Positions 3,401 to 6,725 of a stretch of DNA of 10,427 bases are shown in pieces. A program made the position numbers and the translations under genes. Numbering within the stretch: position 1 is the stretch's first letter; every line of letters begins with the position of its first letter. The notes under the pieces are model-generated. The model was not told the DNA's origin, did not search any database, and was given only the letters and a program-made list of their open reading frames with translations. Source of the DNA: a virus; the UHGV virus genome UHGV-1714787; one strand, 5' to 3'.

Positions 3401-3549
3401 TGACGCTCCATAAAACGCTGCATACGGGCAGAAGACCGTTCTGCATCGCTGGCTGCACCATTCAGAAGGTTTTTGATACGGGGAATTTCATTTTTAAACT
3501 CTGCCGCATCAATCCCCAAATCAATGACCAGGTTGGCTATCTGGTCCAT
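493..3549 (-). CDS. H: Tail tape measure protein (lambda gpH-like)
   Basis: Long ORF (track: 493..3579, 1028 aa). The C-terminus (...NNDGTNGQIGPAALKVVYDLGKK...DGGRLSGAYR) matches the lambda gpH C-terminus; there is a long Q/A/E/R-rich coiled-coil-like central region and a Gly-rich hydrophobic segment. I place the start at ATG 3549..3547 (MDQIANLVIDLGIDAAEF, like lambda MAEPVGDLVVDLSLDAARF), preceded by GGAGGTG about 8 nt upstream; the track start at 3579 is the alternative. Confidence 0.9.
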   Translation of the reverse strand: MDQIANLVIDLGIDAAEFKNEIPRIKNLLNGAASDAERSSARMQRFMERQTQAARQTTQAASSAATAASVHAQTVEKNAQAHERMAREVEKTRQRMEALSQKMREEQAQAMALAEAQDKAAAAFYRQIDSVKQASAGLQELQRIQQQIRQARNSGGIGQQDYLALISEVTAKTRVLTQAEEEATRQKVAFIRQLKEQATRQNLSSSELLRAKAAQLGVSSAAEVYIRKMEQAGKATHSLGLKSAAARQEIGVLIGELARGNLGALRGSGITLANRAGWIDTLMSPKGMMLGGVIGGIAAAVYGLGKAWYDGQKEGEEFNRQLSLTGHYAGVTAGQLWTLSRAISGNGITQHAAAGALAQVVGSGAFRGNDIGMVARAAAQMERSVGQSVSDTINQFKRLKDDPVNAAKALDNELHFLTATQLEQIRVLGEQGRSSDAARIAMSALAEETGRRTADIDNNLNALGSTLKYLSDLWSRFWDAAMNIGREDSLDEQISALQEKVSRAKRLPWTASSSQVEYDQQRLNELQEKKRQKDLQDAKEQAERNYQEQQKRRNAENAALNRMNETEAARHQREIARINAMQYADQAVRDAAIQRENERYEKALASGKKKTRETRNDEATRLLLQYSQQQAQVEGQIAAARQSAGIATDRMTEAHKQLLALQQRISDLDGKKLTADEKSVLARKDELIQALTLLDVKQQELQKQTALNDLKKKTIQLTSQLAEEERAQRQQHDLDIATVGMGDQQRQRYQVQLSLRQKYQQQLEQLRRDSEQKGTYNTDDYRKAEQALTESLNRQLNENRRYWQQLEIAQGDWKNGVLRALQNVTEKADNTAGTVEQLFTSAFSSMSDWLATFCTTGKLNFKSFTSSVLSDMSRIMAQIALMKAVKGIASALPFDFVANADGGVYQSADLSRYSGTVVNRPTFFAFAKGAGVMGEAGPEAILPLRRGADGKLGVVADIGGSGMAMFAPQYNIEINNDGTNGQIGPAALKVVYDLGKKAAADFMQQQARDGGRLSGAYR

Positions 3550-3871
3550 AACGCACACCTCCGGAAATACCTTCCCCAAGATGCATCAGTTCTTCGTCCG
3601 TTCGCTCCGGTATCCCGTTCTCTTCCGGTAAAAGGCTGAAATCAGCCACCGCAGCATCACTGCTGCCGGACACCATTCTCACGATCAATGCCTTCAGCGA
3701 GGCAAACTGCGCATCCATCCACACATCACTGAAGCTCTGCATCCGGAAATAATCGCCCCACTCACCAAGCTCAGTGGCCGACATTTCCGACAGCATCCGC
3801 CGCCAGTCTGCCCGCCGGAACTCCCGGGCAAGCCGCATGACAAACTGCATTTCCCGCGTCAGGACTTTTCC
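3521..3871 (-). CDS. T: gpT-like -1 frame extension of the tail assembly chaperone (G-T fusion made by programmed -1 frameshift near the end of G)
   Basis: ORF 3521..3850 is in the -1 frame relative to G and overlaps the 3' end of G. That frame is open from 3883 (bounded upstream by TGA 3886..3884). The heptamer G GAA AAG lies at 3871..3865 on the minus strand, just before the G stop (TGA 3861..3859). Position between the major tail protein and tape measure genes matches the conserved G/GT arrangement in long-tailed phages. Confidence 0.6.
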   Translation of the reverse strand, partial: GKVLTREMQFVMRLAREFRRADWRRMLSEMSATELGEWGDYFRMQSFSDVWMDAQFASLKALIVRMVSGSSDAAVADFSLLPEENGIPERTDEELMHLGEGISGGVRYGPDSQPGH

Positions 3872-4245
3872 GGCGTCAGCACCTCATGCTCCAAATCCCC
3901 GGCATTATCAATGGCCCCCATACCGCTCAGCGACAGAACCATCTCCGCCCCCGCTCCCAGGGCATCATACGACCATGTTGTAATAACGGATGCGTAAAGC
4001 GTCTCAACATCCTGAGACTGTTCCGCATTCCACAGTGAGCGGGAAACCAGCCAGGCATTGATATCCATCCCCATCCGCAGAAAAGCAATCTGTCGTTCAG
4101 CCTCCGGCAGTTCTCCCTCCCCGGCATCAAACTTTGCCGTTCGCTGCTGAACAAACGTCAGATATTCAATTCTCTGCAGCCCGGACAGCTCACTGAGCAC
4201 CACGGACTGTTTTTCATAATTAAACGTGTCCTGTTTCAGAAACAT
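3859..4245 (-). CDS. G: Tail assembly chaperone (lambda gpG-like)
   Basis: The translation from MFLKQDTFNYEKQSVVLSELSGLQRIEYL resembles the lambda gpG N-terminus (MFLKTESFEHNGVTVTLSELSALQRIEHL). Start chosen at ATG 4245..4243 with GGTGGAGA upstream; an adjacent ATG at 4248 and the longer track start at 4287 are alternatives. Confidence 0.8.
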   Translation of the reverse strand: MFLKQDTFNYEKQSVVLSELSGLQRIEYLTFVQQRTAKFDAGEGELPEAERQIAFLRMGMDINAWLVSRSLWNAEQSQDVETLYASVITTWSYDALGAGAEMVLSLSGMGAIDNAGDLEHEVLTPEKS

Positions 4246-4260
4246 CATGTTCTCCACCTG

Positions 4261-4285
4261 TAAAAAAGCCCCGAATAACCGGGGC
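4261..4285 (-). terminator. Rho-independent terminator hairpin between V and G (minus-strand transcript)
   Basis: Minus-strand RNA reads GCCCCG-GUUAUU-CGGGGC followed by UUUUUU(A): a 6-bp all-GC stem (plus strand 4268..4273 pairs with 4280..4285), 6-nt loop, then a U-tract (plus-strand A-run 4262..4267). It sits in the 60-nt gap between the V stop and the G start. Confidence 0.6.
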
Positions 4286-4305
4286 AAATGATGAGTATCG
4301 TCCTG

Positions 4306-5049
4306 TTAACCTGCTGCGCTGACAGTCACCGCAGCCACAGCCACAAAATTCCCGTCAGCGGTCATGCCCACAATGCTGACACTGCCCTGCTTCACGCCTT
4401 TCACCGTGGCCACAAGCCCGTTCAGGGTCACCGTGGCAGTCTGTGGATCTGTCGAATGCACACTGATCGCTTTGTCACTGGCTCCGTCAGGTTTTACTGT
4501 AAAGGTCAGCGTGGTGGTTGCTCCCACTTTTACACTGGCAGATGCCGGTGCCACCGTCAGCCCGGTAACGCTCACGGTTTCAGTGCCTTCTTCTGCCAGA
4601 TACGGACGCCCCACACCGCTGATTTTCACTGTGCGGGTCATCACGTCTTTTGAGGCAATGGTTTTACCCAGTGAACTCAGCCAGCCACGGAAAACATCAA
4701 CAGTACCGTTGGGATATTTGATACGAAACGCGCAGACTTCACCGGAGTCGAACAACTGAACCAGTTTTTTCTGCCCGCTGTCACCCGGACGCCAGGCCAG
4801 CGTCGCCGAAGTATCACCGACGGATTTCTGCCCCTGGGTTGTCGTTTTCCAGTCTGCATCTTCATCATCGAGATAAGTGTCATCTTCTGCATCAGCGGTC
4901 ATTTCGCCAGGCTGCAGATCCTTCACCATCGCAAGACGCAGCCAGTCAGTGTCCGATAAAGGGTTCGCAAACGCATCGCCCTTGCCGGTGTACATCCAGA
5001 ACGTCGTTCCCGCACCTTTCGTTTTTGCCAGTGGATTTGGTGTGGTCAT
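4306..5049 (-). CDS. V: Major tail protein (lambda gpV-like) with C-terminal Ig-like domain
   Basis: The translation from MTTPNPLAKTKGAGTTFWMYTGKGDAFANPLSD...YLDDEDADW...GQKSVGDTS...NGTVDVFRGW...TRTVK aligns with lambda gpV ([33 protein letters not shown]...YLDDEDADW...). The C-terminal ~90 aa are Thr/Val/Ala-rich beta-like sequence, as in the gpV Ig-like domain. ATG 5049..5047 is preceded by a strong SD AAGGAGGT at 5061..5054; the track start at 5124 is rejected. Confidence 0.9.
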   Translation of the reverse strand: MTTPNPLAKTKGAGTTFWMYTGKGDAFANPLSDTDWLRLAMVKDLQPGEMTADAEDDTYLDDEDADWKTTTQGQKSVGDTSATLAWRPGDSGQKKLVQLFDSGEVCAFRIKYPNGTVDVFRGWLSSLGKTIASKDVMTRTVKISGVGRPYLAEEGTETVSVTGLTVAPASASVKVGATTTLTFTVKPDGASDKAISVHSTDPQTATVTLNGLVATVKGVKQGSVSIVGMTADGNFVAVAAVTVSAAG

Positions 5050-6323: not shown

Positions 6324-6639
6324 TGAGTTTTACCGGCACTTCTTCTGCACTGGTTCCGGCATCTGCCCAGACAACCCCGACCAGCGGATCAGAGCCGCTG
6401 TTAGTCAGCTGAACTTTTCCGGACTTCAGATAAACCTTCTTACCCGTTTTCATATCATCCGTTTTCAGCTTAGGCAGCATAAAAACACCTTCGGTCATGC
6501 CGTCGCCTGTTTCACCCTGTGGAATATCGGTCAGCGCCACCGCAAAAACATCACCCACCTGCACCAGATCTCCGCTGCTGATGGCTGCACTGGCAACAAT
6601 CGCCACCGTTTTTCCTTCTTCTACAAAATTCTTTGCCAT
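6316..6639 (-). CDS. Small head protein, DUF2190-like (putative capsid decoration/cement protein)
   Basis: 107 aa from MAKNFVEEGKTVAIVASAAISSGDLVQVGDVFAVALTDIPQGETGDGMTEGVFMLPKLKTDD..GKKVY...VPVKLNV. This pattern (MAKN..., SGD, GVF.LPK) is what I recall of the DUF2190 family found just downstream of major capsid genes. ATG 6639..6637 has GGAGA about 7 nt upstream; the track ORF start at 6684 is rejected. Confidence 0.55.
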   Translation of the reverse strand: MAKNFVEEGKTVAIVASAAISSGDLVQVGDVFAVALTDIPQGETGDGMTEGVFMLPKLKTDDMKTGKKVYLKSGKVQLTNSGSDPLVGVVWADAGTSAEEVPVKLNV

Positions 6640-6682
6640 AACTGTCTCCGCACAGCCCCGTTCAGGGGCTGATTTCAGGTAC

Positions 6683-6701
6683 AAAAAAAGCCCTTACGGG
6701 C
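6683..6701 (-). terminator. Possible short intrinsic terminator/attenuator downstream of the capsid gene
   Basis: Minus-strand RNA reads GCCC-GUAA-GGGC then UUUUUUU: a 4-bp GC stem (6690..6693 with 6698..6701) capped by a GNRA-type tetraloop, followed by seven U (plus-strand A-run 6683..6689). It lies in the 86-nt gap between the capsid stop (6726) and the next start (6639). The stem is short, so confidence is limited. Confidence 0.4.
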
Positions 6702-6725
6702 CATCAGAGTTGTTGTCTGCGACGT

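Follow-up and report, generated by a model that had tools for sequence, protein, structure and literature searches.

An intrinsic terminator hairpin between the major tail protein and tail chaperone genes of a cdtI/mEp460-type lambdoid phage

The V-G junction and its hairpin

The DNA analyzed here, referred to below as the window, is a 10,427-nt stretch of the virus genome UHGV-1714787. Throughout the window, the long open reading frames are all encoded on the minus strand, where they make up a head-tail module of the lambda type. The window represents a lambdoid phage of the cdtI/mEp460 type (~98% identity), and identity of 96–99% extends across almost its full length in cdtI, mEp460, Ayreon, Tritos, HannyBb, and several PhiR and vB_EcoS phages. 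At one edge, the last 54 nt (10374–10427), which precede the portal gene when read along the coding strand, have no megablast match to cdtI, mEp460, or other close relatives, which suggests a small mosaic difference. The genes of the module, in their order, and the elements of the junction between V and G are the following:

Minus strand, portal protein (PF05136)
Minus strand, ClpP-type protease and capsid protein fusion, next after the portal gene
Minus strand, cement protein, between the capsid fusion and the Gifsy-2-type gene
Minus strand, Gifsy-2-type protein (PF13856)
Minus strand, Z and U, preceding V
4306–5049, minus strand, V, major tail (tube) protein (PF16461, E = 1.9e-66, plus an Ig-like Big_2 domain); stop codon TAA at 4308–4306
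4246–4305, minus strand, V-G intergenic gap of 60 nt
4268–4285, minus strand, terminator hairpin GCCCCGG-UUAU-UCGGGGC, supported by fold and shuffle tests
4262–4267, minus strand, U6 tract abutting the stem (0-nt spacer), then ACA
4259–4261, minus strand, predicted transcript 3' ends for unmodified RNA polymerase, 7–9 nt past the stem, deduced from canonical terminator geometry
4252–4258, minus strand, ribosome-binding site of G (Shine-Dalgarno GGUGGAG), 10 nt past the stem and left accessible by the hairpin
3859–4245, minus strand, G, tail assembly chaperone (PF06894, E = 1.4e-40)
Minus strand, T (PF06223), after G
Minus strand, tape-measure protein, last in the module, after T

The counterpart of V in mEp460 is CDS 7987..8730. 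Translation of G starts at ATG 4245 (MFLK...) or at the adjoining ATG 4248; in a related prophage, PGAP chose the second ATG, which gives the same 60-nt gap. This gap, one of the few true intergenic gaps in the window, coincides exactly with the interval 4246–4305 in which the first-pass annotation had placed a terminator hairpin. On the coding strand it reads CAGGACGAUACUCAUCAUUU-GCCCCGG-UUAU-UCGGGGC-UUUUUU-ACAGGUGGAGAAC, followed by AUGAUG. The hairpin is located on the sense strand, with its 5' arm at 4285–4279, its loop at 4278–4275, and its 3' arm at 4274–4268; the stem is composed of six G-C pairs and a loop-closing G.U pair (G4279.U4274), that is, 7 bp closed by a 4-nt loop. The 6-bp all-GC stem with a 6-nt loop described in the first pass is the same structure counted without the wobble pair, and the U6 run reported there on the transcribed strand is indeed present at 4267–4262 with no spacer. 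The hairpin starts 20 nt past the V stop codon, out of reach of a ribosome terminating there, and 16 nt separate the end of the U-tract from the G start at 4245. A transcript end near 4261, as proposed earlier, agrees with the ends at 4261–4259 predicted from the geometry.

The folding calculation that had been suggested as a check gave −12.6 kcal/mol for the hairpin by itself and −13.8 kcal/mol when its flanks were included, and in the latter form none of 200 shuffles folded equally well (z = −4.2). In dinucleotide-preserving shuffles of the whole window, with both strands counted, only 3 of 500 shuffled windows (0.6%) had a hairpin of at least six G-C pairs with at least six T among the next 7 nt, and the V-G hairpin is the top-ranked terminator-like site within the window. 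It has the features of a canonical intrinsic terminator: a GC-rich stem and a loop within the usual ranges (~5–14 bp and 3–8 nt, respectively), a U-tract directly 3' of the stem, and a noncoding position past a stop codon on the sense strand. An A-tract upstream of the stem, expected of a bidirectional terminator, is absent, the upstream sequence being CAUCAUUU; on the plus strand the hairpin is followed by AAAUGAUG, and the terminator is therefore one-directional. By its structure, then, the V-G element is a canonical one-directional intrinsic (Rho-independent) terminator, and judging from this architecture it very probably terminates unmodified RNA polymerase.

Several other roles were considered for the gap. 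An Rfam 15 covariance-model scan of the whole window, with E-values up to 1, returned no match. The fold of the 91-nt context is not more stable than its shuffles (z = −0.2), so that what is special is the local hairpin only, and a larger structure hiding the ribosome-binding site of G is ruled out by the same result. A promoter or operator role is likewise ruled out, as there is no promoter-like site in or near the V-G gap. RNase III is unlikely to process the element, since its stem of 7 bp is much too short.

The element is not new as a prediction. A "rho-independent terminator" feature already covers this hairpin in mEp460 (JQ182728.1, 8751..8774), and a terminator feature covers it in Ayreon (MF807953.1, 8742..8782), so that two independent phage annotations mark the site at which the first-pass annotation saw an intrinsic terminator between V and G within the late operon. 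Both phages are at least 96.6% identical to the window across the V-G region (96.6–97.5% over the surrounding 1 kb), and any difference between their hairpin and that of the window is confined to the loop-closing base and one base past the U-tract. These annotations are computational, the Ayreon terminators having been predicted with ARNold (PMC5764929), and the function of the element is not discussed there. The 151-nt region around the hairpin is present in 1834 of 5426 complete E. coli genomes (about a third). Since it is annotated in near-identical phages and frequent in E. coli, the element is already known as a predicted terminator, and common. We found no experimental mapping of the V-G element or a homologue (transcript, 3' ends, or decay) in the literature.

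Capsid-gene elements and translation signals

The capsid protein and V are the two most abundant virion proteins, and in the morphogenesis region of mEp460 from A to J, the only two intergenic sense-strand elements that combine a hairpin with a T-run are located after the capsid fusion gene and after V; more such elements occur in this phage after J and lom. A further terminator directly after the capsid gene is also annotated in the mEp460 and Ayreon records. In the window, the gap after the capsid gene is 86 nt long (stop at 6726, next ATG at 6639) and holds two tandem GC hairpins:

6683–6702, minus strand, sister hairpin GGCCC-GUAA-GGGCU followed by U7, starting 24 nt past the stop of the capsid fusion gene (6726)
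6670–6654, minus strand, second post-capsid hairpin AGCCCC-UGAAC-GGGGCU, with no U-tract

The sister hairpin is the one annotated as a rho-independent terminator in mEp460 (6334..6353) and is annotated in Ayreon as well. The same two-hairpin layout was observed in V-G gaps of Symbiopectobacterium (L092, L094). Lambda carries AUGGCCC-UUCG-GGGCCAU at 7164–7194 (L003 2165–2195), followed by UGUUUCUCUG, in a 41-nt gap after the major capsid gene E. This lambda hairpin, which has a poor U-tract, parallels the post-capsid element of the window, whereas the V-G junction of lambda has no hairpin.

Two further observations concern the head genes. The ClpP-protease/scaffold/major-capsid fusion contains an in-frame TAG at 7752–7754 on the minus strand (...GDGIR*ALMARAG...), where the codon is CAG (Gln) in mEp460 and in all 120 of the matching IMG/VR contigs. 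The TAG allele was found in only ~10 of 5426 complete E. coli genomes, and in strain Z247 PGAP calls the fusion gene a pseudogene ("internal stop"). A prophage copy with this codon may have lost the capacity to form capsids, unless translation of the capsid part restarts at ATG 7745. At 9570–9590 on the plus strand, antisense to the portal gene, there is a strong terminator-like hairpin, GCCGUCCGGAUACGGGACGGC, followed by UUUUAU, which mEp460 shares (3466..3446). Its role might be to end antisense transcripts, or it could be no more than a by-product of the coding sequence.

The translation signals of the two genes flanking the gap differ in strength. The Shine-Dalgarno sequence of V is the consensus AAGGAGGU, located 5 nt before ATG 5049, and that of G is the weaker GGUGGAG; thus, translation already favors V. 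Near the end of G, at 3871–3865 on the minus strand, the heptamer G GAA AAG is found upstream of the annotated ATG of T (3850), and slipping by −1 on AAG would bring a ribosome into frame with T. Lambda-type tails have a conserved programmed frameshift between G and T, with which the site is consistent, even though lambda itself has the heptamer G GGA AAG. The gpG chaperone is abundant relative to G-T, with a frameshift ratio of ~30:1. The earlier description of the genes downstream of the hairpin as needed in low copy number accordingly holds for G-T, H, M, and L, and less so for G.

V-G junctions in related phages

To place the hairpin in a wider context, V-G junctions were surveyed in 282 sequences, comprising 278 loci from IMG/VR and GTDB genomes together with the window, lambda, mEp460, and Ayreon; eight named phages and one E. 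coli chromosome were also included. Scans of IMG/VR with G, or with an alignment of 12 G sequences, returned only loci at least 95% identical, and a scan of genome contigs gave 11 loci, so the diversity of the survey came from distant single queries and from the named phages. Stem pairs were counted by script from the base of the stem, as MAFFT put the 3' arms out of register owing to differing loop lengths. The junctions fall into 18 classes. A Stx2a phage (L404) was left uncounted as a class; by eye, its sequence before the G start resembles the tight junction of an Stx1 phage.

Four of the 18 classes are tight, with 10–15 nt between the genes and no hairpin: lambda (TAATCCGGAGAGTCAGCGATG), 1720a-02, mEp043/Eeyore, and an Stx1 phage. 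The element is thus dispensable for lambda-type tail assembly. A GC-rich hairpin (−8.5 to −15.0 kcal/mol) is present in every one of the 14 classes whose gap measures 36–77 nt, and when each gap was shuffled, no more than 1.3% of the shuffles equaled its hairpin. These hairpins start 4–27 nt past the V stop codon and end 15–32 nt before the G start. A T-rich run abuts the stem in eight of the 14 classes:

Two cdtI alleles
Two alleles of an E. coli class (G 66% identical), ACCCCGG-UAUG-CCGGGGU-U6
Two metagenomic classes
Providencia PSTCR8lys
Symbiopectobacterium, at the first of two hairpins

Within this group, a clean T5–T7 run abuts the stem in the cdtI class and in P0059, L118/L121, Providencia, and Symbiopectobacterium L092. 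The remaining six gap classes carry a hairpin with no U-tract:

Three Salmonella classes, GCCCCG-CCUGU-CGGGGC-AUCUUCUG
Fels-1
The N15-like mEp237, CGGGGC-GAAA-GCCCCG-UUCCCCC
Symbiopectobacterium L091

In a Serratia marcescens contig (L093), the V-G gap reaches 236 nt; the first hairpin and a U7 run are kept, and an apparent insertion of ~160 nt into the junction seems to have split the second hairpin.

Across the classes, the loops vary freely, and compensatory, two-sided changes are seen in the stems at pair 1 (G-C to A-U), pair 6 (G-C to A-U), and pair 7 (G-C to C-G). The remaining stem changes are one-sided wobbles, save for rare alleles in which pair 6 or 7, next to the loop, is lost. The flanks, namely the 3' end of V and G, have diverged to ~60% nucleotide identity in the gap classes. 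A mosaic recombination joint at the hairpin is ruled out, as identity falls gradually across the 3' end of V into G. Because the hairpin is kept and compensated despite flanks at ~60% identity and with no sharp breakpoint, the comparison argues that it is under selection, as RNA or as DNA, wherever a V-G gap exists. The common "GCCCC...GGGGC" core could nevertheless reflect shared descent instead of repeated selection.

Within the cdtI class, conservation of the stem is no higher than that of its flanks, and variation is too low for recent purifying selection to be demonstrable. The U-tract is T5–T6 in every cdtI-class haplotype listed. Position 4274 is the one common polymorphism: the window, mEp460, and a minority of relatives have U (G.U pair, −12.6 kcal/mol), and most relatives have C, which gives seven G-C pairs and −15.0 kcal/mol. 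Rare alleles with G or A in the 3' arm at 4274 or 4273, or with A at 4279, reduce the stem to 5–6 bp.

Late transcription and the role of the hairpin

Whether the terminator acts during lytic growth depends on the polymerase that reaches it. The Q gene lies outside the window, and dependence on Q is deduced from the ~98% identical mEp460, the closest complete relative, in which a 250-aa protein matches PF03589 (E = 9.6e-54), the Q-lambda family (PMC9388147). Several sense-strand terminator-like hairpins are located in mEp460 between the Q gene and the terminase genes, as expected of a Q-gated late operon. Q-lambda forms a nozzle on the RNA-exit channel and blocks standard terminator hairpins; the authors of that work speculate that the Q complex might be stopped only by non-standard terminators, in which a spacer separates the hairpin from the U-tract (PMC9388147). 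In the V-G element this spacer is 0 nt. In the conAn system, only unusually long stems (15 bp in TerR of pLS20) resisted antitermination, and this resistance was lost when they were shortened (PMC10325885); the V-G stem has 7 bp. Given the short stem and the lack of a spacer before the U-tract, Q-loaded polymerase should read through the site in lytic growth. The first pass had offered two functional options, a stoichiometry-setting attenuator or a site overridden by Q-dependent antitermination, and from the sequence context the latter fits better.

Some leakiness is plausible all the same while V is being translated, since the hairpin lies only 20 nt past the stop codon. In reporters carrying lambda tR2, termination efficiency rises with distance from the stop codon to a maximum beyond ~30 bp, and at 17–18 bp it ranges from 0.12 to 0.8 depending on sequence (PMC4824070). 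A leaky attenuator, in which a fixed share of late polymerases, Q-loaded ones included, would stop at ~4261 and yield high V and low G/H/M/L, could draw on this partial-efficiency distance (PMC4824070). It could also draw on the position directly after the gene of the most abundant tail protein, with a sister element after the capsid gene, and on the U6 tract kept in every cdtI-class haplotype listed. We regard it as rather unlikely, as this is a standard short-stem terminator in a Q context, six related lineages hold the hairpin with no U-tract, and lambda has no V-G element, which means that a lambda-type tail needs no such device. In addition, Sampson et al. (PNAS, 1988) reportedly concluded that the relative yields of lambda late proteins are set mainly by translation initiation. 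The same architecture, standard and bypassable by Q, would suit an insulator that works in the lysogen only, blocking leakage past tR' or spurious internal initiation with no lytic role, and the high frequency of the element in resident prophages (1834 of 5426 complete E. coli genomes) is in keeping with this. Such a role is unlikely, however, because there appears to be little to block: no coding-strand promoter-like site was found upstream within the head and tail genes, the window has three promoter-like sites against 8.1 expected, the sole one on the minus strand lies downstream at 73–44, and mEp460 already has several terminator-like sites between Q and the terminase genes. It would also leave unexplained the exact placement after the capsid gene and V, as well as the hairpins with no U-tract.

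These U-less hairpins, kept in six lineages, point to a role of the RNA hairpin itself, and the V-G element has sequence features expected of an mRNA-stabilizing hairpin, namely a stable structure after the more highly expressed cistron that is kept independently of the U-tract. In its pure form, this explanation holds that the hairpin is a 3'-end stabilizer or processing barrier guarding the V segment from 3'-to-5' exonucleases, with the U-tract incidental. It would account for a GC hairpin with compensatory changes in every V-G gap of at least 36 nt, for the lack of a U-tract in six of 14 classes and in the post-capsid hairpin at 6670–6654, and it would still work under Q antitermination; the clean T5–T7 runs set against the stem in five lineages, which chance seldom yields, speak against it, and we consider it less likely than not. 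A neutral relic that no longer has a function, for example a terminator left behind by an inserted gene (moron) that was later lost, or a GC palindrome that hitch-hiked along, would fit the dispensability of the element in lambda-type junctions and the cdtI-class stem being no more conserved than its neighbors. The hairpin is nevertheless present in 14 of 14 longer gap classes despite ~60% flank identity, shows compensatory changes, keeps a constant position 15–32 nt before the G start, and coincides with no mosaic breakpoint, and for these reasons a relic is very unlikely.

The reading that we prefer, with a probability of roughly 0.6, is a combined one, in which the element is a conditional stop for polymerase lacking Q, is passable with Q, and then caps the 3' end of V mRNA. 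From the observed structure, rarity, position, conservation with covariation, and the Q gene of the relative, we infer that the element would work in the following manner. When polymerase without Q transcribes the gap, the GC hairpin would form, the enzyme would stall on the U6 tract, and the RNA would be released at ~4261–4259, so that stray transcription would be kept from G, G-T, H, M, and L. In lytic growth, Q-loaded polymerase coming from the late promoter would pass the site, and the hairpin would fold behind it and remain part of the long late transcript. Should a minority of polymerases terminate, or should an endonuclease cut within the U-rich stretch, the V message would end in the hairpin and be protected by it from 3' exonucleases, and V mRNA would survive longer than the segment encoding the chaperone and the tape-measure protein. 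V would thereby gain modestly over G-T-H-M-L, in addition to the advantage given by its stronger ribosome-binding site. A more far-reaching version, which we put forward tentatively from the comparison of junctions, is that the junction has two states, tight (10–15 nt) or 36–77 nt with a hairpin, and that the hairpin rather than termination may be selected, as a 3' cap that would prolong the life of the V mRNA segment, and likewise that of the capsid gene, under Q antitermination. On this view, the U-tract could have been retained in some lineages, such as the cdtI class, and lost in others, such as the Salmonella, Fels-1, and N15-like classes.

Elements of this kind are familiar from other phages and bacteria. 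In lambda, tR' and the late-operon terminators overridden by Q share the hairpin-plus-U-tract geometry and belong to a late operon with a Q-lambda-family regulator; however, tR' sits right after the late promoter as an on/off gate, whereas the V-G element is located ~9 kb into the operon, between structural genes. The T-phi terminator of T7 after gene 10 and the Ff terminator after gene VIII are leaky sites with measured partial termination. As in the window, an intrinsic terminator there directly follows the gene of the most abundant virion protein, and more message upstream than downstream would be the shared outcome, but those phages use T7 RNA polymerase or unmodified host polymerase, while the polymerase reaching the V-G site is expected, as a prediction only, to be termination-resistant. 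The REP sequence between malE and malF and the hairpins of the Rhodobacter puf operon are intercistronic mRNA stabilizers, and they likewise place a stable GC hairpin between highly expressed upstream and less expressed downstream cistrons. REP elements differ in being a dispersed repeat family, the V-G hairpin being a single-copy local element.

As a terminator, the V-G element is ordinary and of a familiar kind. Only mildly new is what the surveyed junctions show when compared, namely that each is either tight or furnished with a hairpin whose U-tract is optional. This pattern bears on whether late operons under Q antitermination still rely on RNA hairpins to adjust the supply of their two most abundant virion proteins, which could be of use in engineering phage or tailocin expression cassettes and in annotating prophage operons. 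If true, segment stability mediated by the hairpin would constitute a transcript-stability layer of late-gene dosage control that is absent in lambda.
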